In this document: positions 8,123-37,835 of the stretch, in pieces
Position numbering within the stretch: position 1 is the stretch's first letter
Layout: the number at the start of each line of letters is the position of its first letter
Virus record (IMG/VR): IMGVR_UViG_3300045988_051379
Location: 18,279-82,278 of that record
Reading direction: 5' to 3' (one strand)
Origin: a virus
DNA: 64,000 nt
Program-made: the position numbers and the translations under genes
Notes under the pieces: generated by a model
Seen by the model: the letters and a program-made list of their open reading frames with translations, nothing else
Told to the model about the DNA's origin: nothing
The model's database searches: none

Positions 8123-8760
8123 TGAGTAAAATAGCAACAGAATTAGAAGCTAAGACTATGGGGGGAGGGACTCTCTCGGTAATTGATAATAAGTGCTGTA
8201 CTAAAGCTAGAGCACTTGAATTAGGATGTCAGATTAAAAGTGGATTTAGTTATACTGATAATCAGTTAGTGGAGTTAGAAGGTATAAAGGCTGCTCCAAA
8301 TGTAATCCTTCATTATGGTTGGAAGGATATGCCAATTAATAATATACAGAAATTTAGAGTACGTTTCTCATTTGTTAATGAGAGTTCAGTGAATGGAGAG
8401 CCATTTAAGTATTCTGACAATACTATGTACTTTACAATTACTCCAAGATTAGAGCAAGGAGAACAAACGTACACTAAGACTTTAGCAAATCCTCTTAAAT
8501 ATTACTTAGAGAAATTAGCACCTTCTAACCAAGACCCATATAATACACCTGTTTGGATACGTTTTGAGGGATACATGATACTTAGGCAAGTGCCTAAAAT
8601 TACATTAGCAGTAGATTCTCAATCTGAGAATTGGGCAGAAGGAGTAACATTCCCTTCATCTGGAAGGTGGGTCGAAATGAATAATTCTGGTAGAGTATTT
8701 AGATTTACTGGTGGGGAAATAGACCTAAACATAGAACTGTATACAGCGTCAGCGCAATGA
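8123..8760 (+). CDS. hypothetical protein (track start 8047 overlaps the upstream gene; Met at 8123 more likely)
   Basis: ORF in track; no motif. Confidence 0.35.
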
Positions 8761-18225: not shown

Positions 18226-18387
18226 ATGAAACTCACTAAGAATAAAAAAGACAATATAATAATTAGTTCTGCTATTGGAGCATTAGTAATTATTAATATC
18301 ATGTTACCCACAGCTGGCGATTTTACATATGTAGTCGGAGCTATAGGTATTGTTGCGGCCATAGGAGTCTGGTTCTTACCAGATTAA
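18226..18387 (+). CDS. small two-TM membrane peptide
   Basis: 53-aa ORF below the track threshold, two hydrophobic helices. Confidence 0.3.
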   Translation: MKLTKNKKDNIIISSAIGALVIINIMLPTAGDFTYVVGAIGIVAAIGVWFLPD

Positions 18388-19049: not shown

Positions 19050-19121
19050 GAGAGGATTAGTTTAATGGTAGAAGGCTAGTTGCGAACTGGCGGAGGGAGT
19101 TCGAATCTCCCATCCTCTCCA
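19050..19121 (+). tRNA. tRNA (anticodon probably GCG, Arg; D-arm atypical)
   Basis: Acceptor GAGAGGA/TCCTCTC, T-arm GGGAG-TTCGAAT-CTCCC, anticodon stem GCTAG/CTGGC with loop TTGCGAA; the D-stem does not pair canonically. Confidence 0.45.
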
Positions 19122-19556: not shown

Positions 19557-19692
19557 ATGGAATAAAAATAACTCCTAGGCTATTAAGTCTGTAATGGGTA
19601 CGCTACTCAATGTAGCACAGGAAGATACTGATAGCTTTTTTGTTCAGGTTTGAGAGACCTCCTGGCATGAGAGGATAATCATGCCGTTCTAT

Positions 19693-20248
19693 GGGCCTAG
19701 ATTTGGTTTTGACAGGCGATTACAAGTTAGTAAGACGTGTAGAGTTCGTACCAACTCTTTAATAATGATACAGCAATTTAAGTGGAAACACTGAAGTAAG
19801 AATGGCAGCCTAAGCTGCTGGCTTATCTATTAATTTAGCTCTAAGTCGGGTTAATTGGAGAGACCTAGAAACAGAAGAGGTGTGGGAAGAAGCGTATAGA
19901 GCAGCCCACTTAACTTGAAAGCCAAAGGTTAGTAAAGCTGAAATCTCCACTACCTATCTATGGGTTACAAATAGAAACGTTCTCCAACGTAAATGGAGTG
20001 GTGGAGGAGCGACTTCGGTCAGCCCAGGTTTGGAAGCGTCAGCTTCTGAACCTTTAAGTTTGGTAGTTTGTAAATTAGCTTTTGGTGTACTGGTTTGGCT
20101 ATTGCAGCCTAATTACCTGGTTCCAAGATAAGACTAGTAAAACTACCTACATGCTGAACTCAACAGCTGATGTAATAAAATAGAGACACACGTAATCTTA
20201 TTAATGAGGGTTGTTTGGACGGCGGTTCGACTCCGCCTAGGTCCACTA
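19693..20248 (+). ncRNA. ssrA: tmRNA (ssrA-like), about 550 nt
   Basis: 5' end GGGCCTAGATTTGGTTTTGACAGGCG matches the tmRNA 5' consensus GGGGcuGAUUcuGGaUUCGACgGG. 3' end GGACGGCGGTTCGACTCCGCC-TAGGTCC-A matches the E. coli ssrA 3' tRNA-like half. The acceptor pairs GGGCCTA/TAGGTCC. The region has no ORF of 60 aa or more with a Met start. A candidate tag ORF ends ...EVRMAA-stop at 19811..19813. Confidence 0.6.
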
Positions 20249-21749: not shown

Positions 21750-22129
21750 ATCCACTATTGACGAATGGTGGTAGCAAAACTTGGTCTGAAGAACCAATAG
21801 ACATATTCCGGAGTATGTCTATGACTTAAAGGCTATATCAAAGAGTTGAAACCTGTATCTATTCGAACAGTAGGAGTTCACCTGATTAAGCATCAGGAAA
21901 CAGTAGTGCAAATCTACTATAGATATTGTGTATAAGAGAGAATCTACACGGTCTGTATTATATAATCAGCATACAGATAGGTCACCAAGCAAACCTCTTT
22001 CCTGCCTGGTCAAGTGTGCATTACGGTCTGTAAGTGGCGAGCGGGTTAACGTATGTCCGATTGCCGTAATGCCGCTTGTTTATTGTTTAGAATAAAGAAA
22101 GACTCTCATAACAATAAATTTAACAAGAG

Positions 22130-23824
22130 ATGGAAATGAAAGGAGCACAAAGGCCAAGGAGGCCTTACCCTAATGCCGCACGTCAAAGGCGGGATGAGAA
22201 TAAACCTAAGTTTGTGGATAATAATCAGTTATTCATAGACCAGTTTGTTAATCTTAAGAAATGTCTTCAGCCACGTACCTACGTGCAAGTGGCTAAAGAT
22301 ATGTATCCTTTATGGAAAGCTAATCCATTACTATGTACCAAGTTTACTGCATATACGAGAATGATAACTCGTAAATGTAGAATAACTACCCCGGAAGGAG
22401 TTATACAGCTTGATACACAGCAAGGAGAAGGTTTGAAGAATGAAGGTATAATGAGAATGCTGTGGTTGGCAATCTATCACAAACCCACATTCCATGCCAA
22501 CATTGCTTATTTTGCAGCAGCTGGATGCTGGAAAGATTTCATTACTATGATGGCTTTAGATGTTCAACTCCATGGCTTTAAGCACAGATTGGATTGGGAC
22601 TTCTTCAAGAAAGTCATATTCGCAGGTCTTGCCAACGGTCAGACGTGTGATTTAGTAAAGAAGTATCTTCCTCGTGTTCGTTCCAGTGTTGCATGTAAGA
22701 CAGATGAGGCAAAAGCACGTAACACAGTAGCCAAATTCTTGGCGGAAGGCCTTTATGGTAAACCTAAGGATGAAGGAGACTATTCAACCTATCGTAAATA
22801 TAGGAAGATGAAGAATAGCGGGAAAGCAGCCCAATGGCAGCAGTTAATCAGTCAAAAGAAATTCTTGGAAATTGATTTTGACACTGTTACTGGAAAGGCG
22901 CTGGCACAGCTAGTAGGCTCTAAATTCCTCAAACATCAAGATCTTAAAGAGAAGTATCAGAACTGGTTGAAGAACCGTAAGAAGCCCTCTAATAGCGGAT
23001 TTCTACATACTCTATTCAAACCATATGGATTGGATAAAATTGCCGAAGAGATTCCAGAATTTATGGAAACTTCTATTAATGCAAGTTTCAACGTATTCGT
23101 TGATAATGCTAAACGCAATAGAGTAGCTCCGTTGTTGGTAGTAAGAGATATAAGCCATTCTGCTAATGGTGAGATAGAGAATAGCGAAACATCTGCTTAC
23201 AGTTTGGGTAAAGTATATGCTTTATATCACTCTGAACTACTTCCTACAATATTCAAAAACTCCTATGCCGTGTTAGAAGATAACATGGTTCTACGTAAGT
23301 TCAAAGGTCAGAATGTCATTGAGAAATGGAAATCTGACAAAGAAGAAGCATTATGCCAGAATCCTTCTATTGTTAATATAGCAGAAATGCTGTGTAAGAT
23401 GAAAGAAGATTATGGTGTAGATGAAGGAGAGTTCCCTAGAGGTTGTGTGGTAATTACTAACCATACATATTTTACCAAGTTGAACAACCAAGCATTCGTG
23501 GAATTTAAGCAGAGATTGCTTAAAGCAAATTTCAGTAAGGAATTTGTAAGGGCGTTCAAAGTTATTATTTGGAGAGTTCCTTTAGCATATAAAGGAAGAC
23601 CTAATGTAGCTTTGGTTCCAGGAGTGTCAAATTGCTTCTTAGTAAATGGACTTAATAATTCAACATCCTCATTTATTACTGGAGAGAAGAGGTTCCAGGT
23701 GCCTAAAACCACTAGAGACATCTTTAAGCATGCTATGAATCAAGAGTTGCTTAATATGATGATTCTAGAGAAGGATGTTGTCAAGAAGAATGCAAGCGTG
23801 CAGAAGAAGCCTGTGAAGGCCTAA
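22130..23824 (+). CDS. vWA-domain protein with N-terminal helical domain (TROVE/Ro60-like or DUF2828-like architecture)
   Basis: 564 aa; C-terminal half carries a MIDAS-type DISHS (DxSxS) motif in LLVVRDISHSANG; the long N-terminal domain is predicted helical. Confidence 0.45.
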   Translation: MEMKGAQRPRRPYPNAARQRRDENKPKFVDNNQLFIDQFVNLKKCLQPRTYVQVAKDMYPLWKANPLLCTKFTAYTRMITRKCRITTPEGVIQLDTQQGEGLKNEGIMRMLWLAIYHKPTFHANIAYFAAAGCWKDFITMMALDVQLHGFKHRLDWDFFKKVIFAGLANGQTCDLVKKYLPRVRSSVACKTDEAKARNTVAKFLAEGLYGKPKDEGDYSTYRKYRKMKNSGKAAQWQQLISQKKFLEIDFDTVTGKALAQLVGSKFLKHQDLKEKYQNWLKNRKKPSNSGFLHTLFKPYGLDKIAEEIPEFMETSINASFNVFVDNAKRNRVAPLLVVRDISHSANGEIENSETSAYSLGKVYALYHSELLPTIFKNSYAVLEDNMVLRKFKGQNVIEKWKSDKEEALCQNPSIVNIAEMLCKMKEDYGVDEGEFPRGCVVITNHTYFTKLNNQAFVEFKQRLLKANFSKEFVRAFKVIIWRVPLAYKGRPNVALVPGVSNCFLVNGLNNSTSSFITGEKRFQVPKTTRDIFKHAMNQELLNMMILEKDVVKKNASVQKKPVKA

Positions 23825-26125: not shown

Positions 26126-26197
26126 GCCCCATTACTTCAGTGGTAGAAGAGCAAATTCTAAACTTGTATGGCGTTGGTTCGAGTCCAACATGGGGCA
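26126..26197 (+). tRNA. suppressor tRNA-Sup (CTA, amber)
   Basis: Canonical 72-nt cloverleaf: acceptor GCCCCAT/ATGGGGC, D-arm CTTC-AGTGGTA-GAAG, anticodon loop TTCTAAA (anticodon CTA at 26158..26160), T-arm GTTGG-TTCGAGT-CCAAC. Confidence 0.6.
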
Positions 26198-26200
26198 CTT

Positions 26201-26381: not shown

Positions 26382-26455
26382 GGGTGTATAACTCAGGTGG
26401 TAGAGTAACACGCTGATAACGTGTAAGTCCTTGGTTCACCCACAATACAACAATT
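26382..26455 (+). tRNA. tRNA-Ile (GAT), aberrant T-arm
   Basis: D-arm ACTC-AGGTGGTA-GAGT and anticodon arm ACACG-CTGATAA-CGTGT are canonical; T-stem and acceptor 3' strand pair poorly. Confidence 0.45.
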
Positions 26456-29342: not shown

Positions 29343-29415
29343 GGGCTGTGTAGTGTAAATGGCTAACACATCACTCTTGCACAGTGAAGTTGGAGTTCGA
29401 GTCTCACACGGTCCA
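29343..29415 (+). tRNA. tRNA-Ala (TGC), weak T-stem
   Basis: D-arm GTGT-AAATGGCTA-ACAC and anticodon arm TCACT-CTTGCAC-AGTGA are canonical; the T-stem has only 3 good pairs. Confidence 0.5.
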
Positions 29416-29443
29416 CAGATTGTTGAACTTAAATTGAAAGGTA

Positions 29444-31030: not shown

Positions 31031-32992
31031 ATGGAAATGACATCATTAATTATCGTTGGTGTAGTTGTACTAGTTGCAATCATCACTATCATTGGGATTC
31101 TATCCCGCTACCGTAAATGTAAATCTGACGAATTGTTGGTAGTTTATGGTAAAACAGGTTCTCATAAAGAGAAAGTTAGCGAACGCGATGCTAAAGGTAA
31201 TCTGGTTGACAGAGAAGTTGAAATTAAAACTGCCAAGGTTTATCATGGTGGTGCAGCTTTTGTATGGCCGATTATACAGGGTTACGAAGTAATGTCAATG
31301 CAGCCGATTCAATTGAATCTTGTATTGAAGAATGCTTTGTCAGCTCAAAATATTCGTGTAACTATTCCTACTACTGTAACTGTTGCTATTAGCCAGGAAC
31401 CGCTGATTATGCAGAATGCTGCTAATCGCTTACTAGGTGCTGATGATGACGTTAAAGAAAGTTTGATTTCAGATATTGTTTATGGTCAGATGAGGCTTGT
31501 TATTGCTTCGATGACTATTGAAGAGCTTAACTCTGACAGAGACAAGTTCCTAGCTCAAGCTAGAGACAATATCAATACGGAATTGAACAAACTTGGTCTT
31601 TATCTGATGAATATCAATATCAGTGACATTCAAGATGCTGCTCAATATATTGATAATCTTGGTAAGAAAGAAGAGACTAAAGCAAGAGCGCAATCACAAG
31701 CTGATATCGCAGAAGAAGAGAAGAAAGGAGCAATCCAGATAGCTCAAACTACGAGAGAGAAGGAGATTGCAATTGCAGCAGCTACTAAGGAGCAAGAAAC
31801 TATAGTGGCTGAAACTAACAGGGAGAAAGAAGTTGCTATTGCTAAGACCACTAAAGAGAAAGAAACTCAATTGGCCGAGCAGCATAAGGAACAACAAATT
31901 GCTGTTGCAGAGCAAAGAAAGGAACGTGAAATTGGTGTGGCTACAGCCCAAACTGAAGAAGCTTCCAAAGTTGCCGAGCAAGAAGCATTGAGAGCTGCCA
32001 AGATTGCAGAGCAGCAAGCTTATGCAACTGCTAAAGAAGCAGAATTTACTGCCAAAGCTGAAGCCGCTAGGGCAGAAGCAGAAGCAGAGAAGGAAGTTCG
32101 TATGGCAGTAGCAGCACAAAACCAAGAAGCTGAAACTGTTAAAGCACAGCAGGAGAAAGAAGCTAAAACTGCACAGTATGAATCAGAAGCCCGTCAAAAG
32201 GCAGCTGAAGCAGAGAAAGCAGCAGGAGTAGCTGAACAGAAAGCTACTATTGAAGTTTCCAAAGCTAAGGGAGAAGCAGAGAAAGCTAAAGCTGAAGCTG
32301 AAAGAGTAGCTGGTACTTCCAAAGTTGAAGCTCAAATGGCAGTTGCTAAAACAGAGCAGGAACGTCAGGTAGAAGTTAATGAAGCTAAAGCTAAAGCTGA
32401 AGAAGCTAAGCTTAAAGCTGAAGTAATTATACCTGCCGAGAAGGCCAAAGAGAAAGCTAAGATTGAAGCAGAAGCTGTTAAGAGTGTAGCCATTCTTGAA
32501 GCAGAAGCGGAAGCAGCTAAAATCTTGAAAGCAGCAGAAGCTAAAGCAAATGCTACTAAGATGCAGCTGGAAGCAGAAGCTGAAGGTACCAAGAAGAAAC
32601 TTCTTGCTGAAGCTGAAGGTAAGAAAGCGTCTTTAATGGCAGAAGCTGAACAGAAACAGGCAATGGAAATGGCTCCGGCTCTTGCAGTTGAACATATGAT
32701 TAAATCAGGTATGCATCCTGAAGCAATCGTTCAATATGCAATGACCGACAGGTGGAAGGAAGTTGCTGAAGCCAACGCTAAGGTATTTGAACATATCCAG
32801 CTTGGTAATGTTACTGTGTATGGTGATTCCAACACTGCTGGACAGTTCATGGCTAATATGGCTAAGAATCTTGCTCCGAGTTTGGAAATTGCCCGTAATT
32901 TGCCTATTGCAGATTCGCTTAAGCAAATAATCACTGGCAAGAAGCCAGAAGAATCACCAGCTAAAGGTGATAATTTTCCTCCTGTAAAGTAA
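31031..32992 (+). CDS. flotillin-like SPFH/band-7 protein (FloT/YuaG/YqiK-like) with a long EA-rich coiled coil
   Basis: N-terminal TM then RYRKCKSDELLVVYGKTGS...VYHGGAAFVWPIIQ, matching the FloT KYRTAGPDEALIVTG...IVRGGGTFVLPVFQ region; ~300 aa of AEAEAK-type repeats. Confidence 0.6.
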   Translation: MEMTSLIIVGVVVLVAIITIIGILSRYRKCKSDELLVVYGKTGSHKEKVSERDAKGNLVDREVEIKTAKVYHGGAAFVWPIIQGYEVMSMQPIQLNLVLKNALSAQNIRVTIPTTVTVAISQEPLIMQNAANRLLGADDDVKESLISDIVYGQMRLVIASMTIEELNSDRDKFLAQARDNINTELNKLGLYLMNINISDIQDAAQYIDNLGKKEETKARAQSQADIAEEEKKGAIQIAQTTREKEIAIAAATKEQETIVAETNREKEVAIAKTTKEKETQLAEQHKEQQIAVAEQRKEREIGVATAQTEEASKVAEQEALRAAKIAEQQAYATAKEAEFTAKAEAARAEAEAEKEVRMAVAAQNQEAETVKAQQEKEAKTAQYESEARQKAAEAEKAAGVAEQKATIEVSKAKGEAEKAKAEAERVAGTSKVEAQMAVAKTEQERQVEVNEAKAKAEEAKLKAEVIIPAEKAKEKAKIEAEAVKSVAILEAEAEAAKILKAAEAKANATKMQLEAEAEGTKKKLLAEAEGKKASLMAEAEQKQAMEMAPALAVEHMIKSGMHPEAIVQYAMTDRWKEVAEANAKVFEHIQLGNVTVYGDSNTAGQFMANMAKNLAPSLEIARNLPIADSLKQIITGKKPEESPAKGDNFPPVK

Positions 32993-33079: not shown

Positions 33080-33167
33080 GGAGAGTTGGGTGAGTGGCTT
33101 AAACCAGTCCCCTGCTAAGGGACCGAACCTCAAAAGGGTTCCGCTGGTTCGAATCCAGCACTCTCCG
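33080..33167 (+). tRNA. tRNA-Ser (GCT), type II
   Basis: Anticodon arm GTCCC-CTGCTAA-GGGAC, long variable arm with GAACC/GGTTC stem, T-arm GCTGG-TTCGAAT-CCAGC. Confidence 0.8.
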
Positions 33168-33219
33168 CGCTGGCTAATAAGAGTTTGCGAAAATCATTAA
33201 TAACCTAATTATTAGAATT

Positions 33220-36767: not shown

Positions 36768-37835
36768 ATGATTAGTATTGTATTAGGAACATTCTTTGGA
36801 GACGAAGGTAAGGGACAGACAGTTCACAACTTATGTAACAAGTACATAGGTAAGCGAGAGTCTGTATTAGTAGTCAGGTTTAGTGGTGGACATCAAGTAG
36901 GACATACTGTAAAGCATGGAGACATGATGCACACCTTTAGTAACTTTGGCAGCGGAACCTTACTTGGAGTGCCGACGTATTGGTCCGAATACTGTACTGT
37001 AGACCCAATTACCTCTATGTTAGAGGGTGCAGACTTAGCTAAAATGGGAGTTCATCCCATTGTTCAGTATCACCCTCACTGCCAAGTTGTAATTCCCTTC
37101 GATGTCTATTCCCAAGTTAATAATGAAGAGAACTTACGACATGGTACTGTAGGTACAGGGTTTAAAGCTTGTTTGGACCGAGTTAAGGCAGGATACAGCT
37201 TAACAGTTGTAGATTGTATGAATCCTTACATACTACGTGAGAAATTAAATGCCATAGTGGATAACTATTACAACATGTCTAGTAAATATCCCTCGATAGA
37301 CCTAGACAACTGGTGTAGGTTAGCACATGCTTATTTCTTACATACAGGTACGGTTAATGAAGATTGCTTGTTAAACTATGACAACCTAGTGTTTGAAGGT
37401 TCACAGGGAATATTGCTTGACCAAAGATTCGGCATAATGCCTTATTGCACTCCGTCTAATACAACTTCACAAAACGCTTACGAGCTGTTGCGGAAAGCAG
37501 GCATACGTAAAGAAATCCAAACTTGTTATGTAACTCGTCCTTATATAACAAGGCATGGTAACGGCCCATTTCCTTCTGGAATGTCTGTTAGGGATGTCGA
37601 TGACCCTAATAATAAGTTCAACGATTTCCAGAAGACGCTTAGGGCTATTGATTTCGACAAAGACCTATTCGCACACAGTGTACGCATTAACCGTTCATTT
37701 AAAGTTCCTTATAGGAATGAACGAACGGAGAAATTGTACGTATCACATTGGGATGAAGCATCTGACGCAGAGCAAGAAATGCTAGCGAATTTATGGATGT
37801 CAATACAACCCATGATATTCGATAAGTTAGTTTAG
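36768..37835 (+). CDS. adenylosuccinate synthetase (PurA)-like enzyme, C-terminally short; candidate PurZ (2-aminoadenine pathway)
   Basis: GDEGKGQ P-loop, RFSGGHQVGHT, FEGSQGILLDQRFGIMPYCTPSNTT and HGNGPFP match the PurA motifs GDEGKGK / GGHNAGHT / FEGAQGTLLD-TYPYVTSSNTT / GAGPFP. Only 355 aa versus ~430 for cellular PurA. Confidence 0.55.
   Translation: MISIVLGTFFGDEGKGQTVHNLCNKYIGKRESVLVVRFSGGHQVGHTVKHGDMMHTFSNFGSGTLLGVPTYWSEYCTVDPITSMLEGADLAKMGVHPIVQYHPHCQVVIPFDVYSQVNNEENLRHGTVGTGFKACLDRVKAGYSLTVVDCMNPYILREKLNAIVDNYYNMSSKYPSIDLDNWCRLAHAYFLHTGTVNEDCLLNYDNLVFEGSQGILLDQRFGIMPYCTPSNTTSQNAYELLRKAGIRKEIQTCYVTRPYITRHGNGPFPSGMSVRDVDDPNNKFNDFQKTLRAIDFDKDLFAHSVRINRSFKVPYRNERTEKLYVSHWDEASDAEQEMLANLWMSIQPMIFDKLV

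Follow-up and report, generated by a model that had tools for sequence, protein, structure and literature searches.

A one-piece tmRNA gene with an enlarged post-tag domain in large, tRNA-rich phages of the human gut

Identification of the tmRNA gene and its homologues

The viral record IMGVR_UViG_3300045988_051379 (IMG/VR), of which a stretch of 64,000 nucleotides (positions 18,279 to 82,278, hereafter the window) was analyzed, carries what is, judged from its sequence, in all likelihood a functional one-piece transfer-messenger RNA (tmRNA, ssrA) gene of a large, tRNA-rich gut phage. The gene occupies window positions 19693-20245 on the plus strand and measures 553 nt up to the discriminator A. 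A preliminary description of the window had proposed a tmRNA here, and the covariance model, the anatomy of the RNA and the comparison of 63 distinct homologues agree on this identity. The Rfam model RF00023, which that description had suggested as a check, matched 19693-20248 at 84 bits (gathering score 47, E 4e-31) over model positions 1-374, which is the full model, and 11 scanned family copies scored 66-86 bits. The 5' end from 19693 reads GGGCCTAGATTTGGTTTTGACAGGCG / GGGCCUAGAUUUGGUUUUGACAGGCG, and the 3' end, with its last base at 20245, reads GGACGGCGGTTCGACTCCGCCTAGGTCCA / GGACGGCGGUUCGACUCCGCCUAGGUCCA. The end of the gene, first placed at 20248, is corrected to the discriminator A at 20245, the bases 20246-20248 being CUA and aligned merely to the CCA positions of the Rfam model. 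As was first noticed, the region is devoid of any open reading frame (ORF) of 60 aa or more, the longest overlapping ones being 46 and 45 aa. The minimum free energy (MFE) fold of the 553 nt closes the ends as an acceptor stem, reproduces the long helix H2 and has a z-score of -3.3 against dinucleotide shuffles.

ARAGORN, the other program suggested as a check, reported 27 tRNAs in the window and zero tmRNA, at this locus or elsewhere in it. Across the family it called a tmRNA in three of the 63 copies (the 515-nt ones), with a wrong tag, and missed the other 60. Length alone was considered as the cause of this miss and rejected, since the window copy, shortened stepwise to 460 nt, was still undetected. 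No Rfam family other than tmRNA was found within the extra length at E values up to 5, and the window copy is without an intron.

The gene has many relatives. Among 50,697 deposited phage genomes, the tmRNA matched two records, both unannotated fragments from human faeces. Exact internal 25-27-mers fetched dozens of IMG/VR viral contigs from several gut metagenomes, which are mostly about 95-190 kb long and of human gut origin, relatives reaching about 185-190 kb. An nhmmer profile search found a homologue in all 89 fetched loci and in three more, giving 92 phage loci; the three came from matching a degenerate pattern of the tRNA-like ends to IMG/VR, where the other matches listed shared the 3' end only. 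The analyzed set consists of 63 distinct full-length copies of 507-601 nt (median 549), which are 53-90% identical to the window copy. In their alignment, 91.2% of the cells in 20 helices (110 pairs) are paired, compared with 40-44% after sliding of the 3' partners by one to three columns, a percentage that is somewhat favored because the structure was derived from the alignment of the same family. Two-sided changes, whose count is less favored in this way, were found at 39 pairs, compared with 5-14 in the slid controls, and none of 500 column shuffles reached the observed values. As read from this alignment, the tmRNA elements and about 20 helices have been kept by compensatory change in 63 distinct copies.

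The tRNA-like domain

The two ends of the region had been likened to the halves of the tRNA-like domain of a tmRNA, and they do fit it. The 5' strand GGGCCUA (19693-19699, nt 1-7; window position 19693 is nt 1 throughout, and all features of the RNA lie on the plus strand) pairs with UAGGUCC (20238-20244, nt 546-552), closing the proposed acceptor helix over 7 bp with a G3:U70 pair. The T arm GGCGG-UUCGACU-CCGCC (nt 529-545), followed by this 3' acceptor strand and the discriminator A, spans 20221-20245. The acceptor stem covaries in the family, occurring as GGGCCUA/UAGGUCC, GGGCCUG/CAGGUCC, GGGCUUG/CAAGUCC and GGGCCAU/AUGGUCC, and the T stem shows two-sided changes at four of its five pairs, with 100% of cells paired. 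The alanine identity elements, the G3:U70 wobble pair and the discriminator A, are present in all 63 unique copies, the window copy included.

The tag reading frame

A candidate tag frame ending in TEVRMAA and a stop had been pointed out in the region. It is present, and it could be refined to (A)GNTEVRMAA, with nine codons from the resume codon GGA (nt 92) to the stop UAA at 19811-19813 (nt 119-121), the frame as a whole lying at 19784-19813 and reading GGA AAC ACU GAA GUA AGA AUG GCA GCC UAA. A G-first codon (GGN or GCN) is in frame with a stop in all 63 aligned copies, and the tags have 9, 10 or 11 codons, with length differences of whole codons only. The tags include GNTEVRMAA, GNTTYRMAA, AEIDYNRMAA, AEIAPVRMAA, AERSD[VY]RMAA and ATYSEVRMAA, as well as GETEGFRMAA, GETEGYLRMAA, ATTSVRMAA, ANTSVRMAA, GNTRVKMAA and GNTVYRMVA; the front varies freely, while the end [R/K]-M-[A/V]-A occurs in 63 of 63. 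Synonymous changes are found (GGA/GGC and GCC/GCU/GCG), and the stops are UAA or UGA, never UAG. The exchange of Arg for Lys takes a two-base change, AGA to AAG, which points to a constraint on the peptide and not on the RNA alone. These features argue for a tag that is read as protein. The sequence pattern of the phage-type tag end was absent from 185,579 bacterial species genomes.

Structure of the RNA body

Helix H2 connects the tRNA-like domain with the RNA body, its 5' strand (19713-19740, nt 21-48) pairing with its 3' strand at 20188-20217 (nt 496-525). The segments 21-26/520-525, 35-43/504-512 and 44-48/496-500 are paired in 96.5-100% of cells, and 12 pairs show two-sided changes. An element resembling pseudoknot 1 (PK1) follows at 19741-19771, with a hairpin AGAGUU/AACUCU (nt 49-54/61-66) that is invariant in the family; in the possible second stem of PK1, a U:A pair is exchanged for C:G in the GGCACC...UGC variants. 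The tag stop codon lies inside the loop of hairpin H5 (GCAGC-CUAA-GCUGC, 19805-19818), which is paired in 100% of cells and whose stem covaries to GUAGC/GCUAC in two copies.

The unusual length of the RNA had been ascribed to additional structure or an insertion, which is right in outline, as an expanded modular domain follows the tag and contains a hairpin insert. This structured domain (19820-20174, nt 128-482) stands where the canonical pseudoknots 2-4 (PK2-PK4) would be, holds at least ten supported helices and one compact pseudoknot, and probably does the scaffolding job of PK2-PK4. The family alignment gives a variable hairpin (nt 128-133/150-155) and the closing helix of a large domain (nt 156-159/330-333), followed by a long-range helix (nt 164-169/252-257; 86% of cells paired, two-sided changes at five of six pairs) that encloses three hairpins (nt 171-174/186-189, 190-194/213-217 and 218-224/234-240). 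The MFE pairing of 252-261 with 306-315 was rejected, being paired in 66% of cells, which is the level of the slid controls; the helix 164-169/252-257 is supported instead. The compact pseudoknot (19977-19998) interleaves ACGU/ACGU (nt 285-288/295-298) with CUCCA/UGGAG (nt 290-294/302-306), and compensatory changes turn the former into AGUU/AACU in copy L020 and the latter into CUUCA/UGAAG in nine copies. A UUCG hairpin also lies within the post-tag domain. The insert is an optional 11-bp hairpin, GGUUUGGAAGC-GUCA-GCUUCUGAACC (20027-20052, nt 335-360), which occurs in 13 of the 63 copies including that of the window, is doubled in L065, is paired in 98.6% of cells and shows one compensatory change; it was flagged by a terminator scan, yet it is located within the RNA. 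According to the same alignment, a second domain is closed by nt 370-377/448-455, and a terminal hairpin with the constant loop GAACUCA is formed by nt 457-464/472-481.

Some stretches of the domain are near-invariant, namely AGUCGGGUU (nt 152-160, 19844-19852) and AGAAACAGAAGAGG (nt 175-188, 19867-19880), each in 61 of 63 copies, and the GAACUC of the loop GAACUCA (nt 465-471, 20157-20163), in 62 of 63. None of them served as bait for fetching relatives, and their constancy suggests binding sites for a partner.

A further hairpin, UGGCAUGA-GAGGAUAA-UCAUGCCG, lies upstream of the gene at 19663-19686 on the plus strand, 6 nt before the mature 5' end. It overlaps a sigma-70-like match of the promoter scan, TTGAGA-18-GATAAT (19650-19679), including its -10 match. 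About half of the family has this hairpin, with a covarying stem (GUGCAG/CUGCAC, GGCACGA/UCGUGCC) and the constant loop GAG(U/G)AUAA; in the window it is the sole hairpin with at least four stem pairs around a GAG[G/U]AUAA loop, and a weaker 4-bp hairpin elsewhere in the window has the loop AAGTATAA. The upstream hairpin may be a promoter, a leader or a processing signal.

Rearranged copies were also observed in the family. The tmRNA is a mosaic, in which cassettes of hairpins or domains have been swapped, inserted or duplicated between copies (for example L065, L043, L028 and L040): L065 contains a 33-nt hairpin module twice, three segments complementary to one another are jointly missing from L040, and the same middle region is found with different tRNA-like ends. 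The tmRNA at L054:7740-8633 (IMGVR_UViG_3300045988_023864) is interrupted in the T loop, behind GACCGCGGUU, by an insert of about 870 nt. This insert opens with a group I intron (Rfam RF00028, 94.4 bits, E 1e-24) and contains a Cys-rich ORF of 194 aa on the opposite strand; the 3' exon CCGCGAUGGUCCA resumes at 8621. A bacterial ssrA gene with an intron at this T-loop site is also known. At L041:7926-8010, the 3' acceptor strand has been lost; UGGCGUUACU... comes after the T arm, with a terminator-like hairpin behind it, and this copy is probably dead.

Relation to bacterial tmRNAs and the likely host

For comparison, a T-arm pattern fetched at least 120 bacterial loci, which constitute a sample rather than a census, and the counts of bacterial tmRNAs given here hold among the matches listed. 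ARAGORN found tmRNAs of 306-422 nt (median 389) in 104 of these loci, not counting a second, spurious call at L210 (625 nt), and Rfam recovered the remaining ones, the longest complete tmRNA being one of 496 nt from a Gracilibacteria genome. None of the 111 complete bacterial tmRNAs (306-496 nt) is as long as any of the 63 phage copies.

The 3' end had been compared with E. coli ssrA; a generic resemblance stands, while the closest tRNA-like domain is that of Bacteroides. A start with GGGC instead of GGGG was seen in four of the 105 bacterial calls, three of which are from Bacteroides (L243, L286 and L321), whose tmRNAs start with GGGCUUGACUGGAUUUGAC and end with GGACGAGGGUUCGAUUCCCUCCAGGUCCA. 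The phage copy L075 is identical to these Bacteroides tmRNAs over its first 19 and last 29 nt. Bacteroidales tags such as GETNYALAA and GNNNFALAA have the same length and first residues as the phage tags GETEG... and GNTE.... Beyond the tRNA-like ends, no similarity to the Bacteroides tmRNA was detectable by nhmmer, which aligns the last 35-80 nt only.

The tmRNA of Bacteroides sp. GD17 (L243) is a chromosomal one-piece RNA of 395 nt by ARAGORN or 397 nt by Rfam, with the tag GETNYALAA. It shares with the phage RNA the acceptor GGGC...GGUCCA with G3:U70, a T arm that is the same in some phage copies, and a resume codon GGN opening a nine-codon tag that starts G-E/N-T; the two RNAs also look alike at the entry into H2 and PK1 (GUAAGCAUGCAGUGC in the phage, GUAAGACGUGUAGAGU in Bacteroides). 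However, the phage tmRNA is about 40% longer (553 versus about 395 nt), its tag ends in RMAA rather than ALAA, PK2-PK4 cannot be recognized in it, and the window copy scores 84 bits with RF00023, whereas the Bacteroides tmRNAs score 126-130 bits.

The match between the tRNA-like ends points to Bacteroides as host or donor. The tRNA-Ala gene of the window (29343-29416) has the same GGGC...GGUCCA acceptor as the tmRNA. The Bacteroidota-type bipartite promoter motif TTTG-N17-21-TAnnTTTG occurs seven times in the window against 1.7 expected, which is a weak hint to the host; the Bacteroidota -7 box alone showed no enrichment, and no bipartite motif was found upstream of the tmRNA. The likely hosts of these phages are Bacteroides or close relatives, and the gene probably goes back to a host tmRNA that was later heavily remodeled.

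The end of the tag invites another reading, which we consider doubtful, namely that the tmRNA rescues ribosomes and, by its [R/K]-M-A-A end, alters the fate of the tagged proteins. Degradation of the ClpXP type would then be spared or slowed, or another protease or adaptor would be engaged, and the RNA would compete with the host tmRNA via a host-identical tRNA-like domain. Such a role would fit a tag end kept constant throughout the 63 copies, unlike the rest of the tag, an Arg-to-Lys exchange that keeps the charge, bacterial tag calls that end in ALAA in 81 of 105 cases, in AMAA in three and in RMAA in none, and tRNA-like ends that are identical or nearly identical to those of the Bacteroides tmRNA. 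However, the last two residues are still Ala-Ala, and the known E. coli signal for ClpX has Ala-Ala at its core. Moreover, AGAAUGGCAGC adjoins or overlaps hairpin H5, so its conservation may be partly structural, and no candidate phage adaptor or protease has been linked to the tag.

In a broader form of this idea, which we likewise hold to be improbable, Bacteroides phages have rebuilt the host tmRNA, with a host-identical tRNA-like domain, a basic-Met-Ala-Ala end in place of the ALAA degron and a larger domain in place of PK2-PK4, and the invariant loops (AGAAACAGAAGAGG and GAACUCA) bind phage or host factors. If true, the rebuilt tmRNA would uncouple ribosome rescue during infection from the normal host proteolysis of tagged proteins, or would reroute it.

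Phage context, tRNA genes and partner protein

The assumption that the tmRNA is phage-encoded holds, as ORFs of the window belong to PHROG families and all homologues are on IMG/VR viral contigs or on phage records from human faeces. The PHROG matches include a Sak4-like annealing protein, DnaB-like helicases, HNH endonucleases and a PurZ-like enzyme, and phage gene families flank the tmRNA on both sides. Proteins of large Bacillus, Serratia and Klebsiella phages (135-165 kb) share 45-47% identity with an ORF of 670 aa. A crAss-like affiliation was considered and found unsupported, the conserved 670-aa ORF matching large Bacillus, Serratia, Klebsiella and Salmonella phages. Among the Pfam and PHROG matches listed, none was noted as an integrase. 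The gene is thus part of a phage genome, rather than of a bacterial chromosome or a prophage attachment site.

The window contains 26 plus-strand tRNA genes spanning 19051-52459; of the non-overlapping plus-strand ARAGORN calls, one is at 19051-19120 and the other 24 are between 23988 and 52459. The tmRNA had been described as lying inside a tRNA block; it is indeed next to a tRNA-rich region, but sits at its upstream edge and not inside. One of the tRNAs (26126-26198, labeled 'Pyl' by ARAGORN) is a suppressor tRNA with the anticodon CUA, which hints at TAG recoding elsewhere in the genome; within the window, readthrough of TAG barely lengthens any ORF. A short tRNA-like Rfam match of 40 bits at 26382-26442 is not among the ARAGORN calls, and the minus-strand call of tRNA-Arg(UCG) at 33107-33183, which overlaps the plus-strand tRNA-Ser at 33080-33168, is probably spurious.

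About 1.5 kb downstream of the tmRNA, a RAGATH-34 RNA was detected at 21752-21859 (118 bits, gathering score 60.7), and its neighborhood is kept in the relatives L004, L006, L007 and L016. The next ORF (22130-23824, 564 aa) matches PHROG 850, annotated as 'RNA-binding protein' (E 4e-11), and no Pfam family; the two may form an RNA-protein pair. The window also possesses an adenylosuccinate synthetase-like ORF, PurA or PurZ, at 36768-37835 (Pfam E 8.5e-35; PHROG 1211, '2-aminooxy adenylosuccinate synthetase'), which has homologues in the tmRNA-bearing mycobacteriophages ErnieJ and Trinitium and in Vibrio phages and may be related to modified (2-aminoadenine) DNA. Several accessory ORFs among the 96 of the window are cell-like according to Pfam, with GroES-like, SPFH/Band 7, ribosomal L7/L12 C-terminal, ferritin-like and bactofilin matches; they include 259-807 on the minus strand and 31031-32992.

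Proposed function

The sequence elements of an alanine tRNA mimic and of a short mRNA can all be recognized in the window gene, and the following course is predicted from them. The tmRNA would be transcribed with, or beside, the phage tRNA genes, and its 5' end would be processed as in tRNAs, while host enzymes would trim the 3' end and add CCA. Such an addition would be required for all plus-strand tRNAs of the window as well, none of the 26 having an encoded CCA; both in these and in the tmRNA, a C comes right after the discriminator but is not continued by CA. Host alanyl-tRNA synthetase (AlaRS) would charge the RNA, and host SmpB and EF-Tu would bring it to ribosomes that have stalled because their mRNA is broken or lacks a stop codon. 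There, the ribosome would switch to the tag frame at GGA, add Ala-GNTEVRMAA and end normally at UAA. The likely benefit is an increased capacity for ribosome rescue during infection, when mRNA decay and nuclease-based defenses would trap ribosomes. The context of the gene is also related to translation, with the 26 tRNAs, a GroES-like ORF and another ORF containing an L7/L12-like domain. Proteins tagged by the phage RNA may be treated differently from host-tagged ones, given that the tag end is constant yet departs from the canonical ALAA.

Several observations weigh against this reading. CCA is unencoded in the window tmRNA and is encoded in one of the 63 family copies. The Rfam alignment skips nt 128-482, where canonical PK2-PK4 are unrecognizable, and Bacteroidales tmRNAs reach 126-143 bits with RF00023, compared with 66-86 bits for the phage family. 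In PK1, a pairing of the loop, GUA/UAC (nt 56-58/77-79), is possible over 3 bp and is paired in 48% of cells on the automatic alignment. As none of the 105 bacterial tag calls ends in RMAA, proteolytic targeting cannot be assumed, and the copy L041 indicates that the gene can decay. No SmpB was found among the 96 ORFs of the window or in the 898 kb of window and family loci with a profile of 25 SmpBs; a scan of IMG/VR listed unrelated SmpBs from prophage ends, which are uninformative for the family. The tmRNA would therefore depend on the SmpB of the host, a likely partner that also fits the host-type tRNA-like domain, or on an SmpB gene elsewhere in the phage genome, the host being the more likely source.

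The lack of a phage SmpB nearby, together with a tRNA-like domain of the host type and an RNA body highly divergent from that of the host, would also suit a decoy, an RNA that mainly titrates host SmpB, AlaRS or EF-Tu and blocks host trans-translation without tagging of its own. A role of this kind was proposed for the molecule of mycobacteriophage DS6A that consists of the tRNA-like domain only (PMC4131195). However, a decoy needs no reading frame, whereas the frame, the position of the resume codon, the whole-codon length differences, the synonymous changes and the stop codon in the H5 loop have been kept in 63 copies, and conservation extends to H2 and the PK1 hairpin, by which the resume codon is positioned. 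We therefore regard a decoy as very improbable.

Still less credible, and already disfavored, is a decaying passenger, that is, a tmRNA captured from a host, for instance via a prophage integrated at ssrA, and now non-functional. The loss of the 3' acceptor strand in L041, the loss of PK2-PK4 and a model score of about 60% of that of Bacteroidales tmRNAs could be taken in its favor, as could the many IMG/VR prophage contigs, among the matches listed, that end at smpB, beside the ssrA integration site. However, the gene is of full length and no attachment-site fragment, and it persists in 92 loci despite divergence down to 53% identity, about 39 pairs having undergone compensatory changes. As the phage-type tag end occurs in none of the 185,579 bacterial species genomes, the capture was not recent, which also counts against a passenger. 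A functional tmRNA that serves ribosome rescue during infection is thus the reading we prefer.

Comparison with known phage tmRNAs

The rarity of phage tmRNAs had been remarked upon at the outset, and it agrees with an ARAGORN survey in which 402 of 18,146 phage genomes (2.3%) carried a tmRNA, two-piece forms in marine phages included (PMC9004378). The earlier surveys of phage tmRNAs were all based on ARAGORN (PMC4131195, PMC7162821, PMC9004378). Since this program, which underlies Pharokka and the calls in huge phages, misses 60 of the 63 copies analyzed here, the counts of phage tmRNAs are underestimates. A widespread group of large human-gut phages with its own ribosome-rescue RNA thus constitutes an annotation blind spot, and among the literature searched, no paper on the tmRNA or the RAGATH-34 RNA of this group was found. 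The Bacteroides-type tRNA-like ends hint at the host of this uncultured group of phages. In addition, a constant, non-bacterial tag end would allow the fates of phage-tagged and host-tagged proteins to be compared, and thereby bears on whether a phage tmRNA serves rescue or proteolysis.

Known tmRNAs of phages include those listed by the tmRNA Website for mycobacteriophages (Bxz1, Catera, Rizal and others) and for Bacillus phage G (PMC4131195). Like the window, these phages have a complete ssrA gene in a large, tRNA-rich genome, and the tmRNA-bearing mycobacteriophages ErnieJ and Trinitium also carry a PurA-like gene, as does the window (PMC5122674; PMC10281172). However, they belong to another host phylum, their tmRNAs are unrelated in sequence, and they were found by standard tools, whereas the gut family is missed by ARAGORN.

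Huge phages with genomes of more than 200 kb also encode tmRNAs, some together with SmpB (PMC7162821). As in the window, the rescue RNA is part of an expanded set of translation genes (PMC7162821). Unlike the gut family, they had their tmRNAs called by ARAGORN, and some of them carry SmpB, which was not found in the window and family loci (PMC7162821). Most contigs of the gut family are shorter than 200 kb.

The tmRNA of the marine phage Melnitz and the pelagimyophages is of a type that matches a bacterial lineage and thereby gives a clue to the history of its hosts, and the same applies to the gut phage (PMC9004378). The former is a two-piece (permuted) RNA linked to a glutamine riboswitch, whereas the latter is a one-piece RNA and showed no riboswitch match (PMC9004378). 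Finally, the ssrA fragment of DS6A resembles the window gene in having a host-type tRNA-like domain that could compete for SmpB, but it consists of this domain alone, while the window gene keeps the whole mRNA-like part with a conserved tag frame (PMC4131195). Phage tmRNAs are therefore already established, and what sets the gut family apart is the expanded, non-canonical post-tag domain, the conserved RMAA end and the invisibility to ARAGORN.

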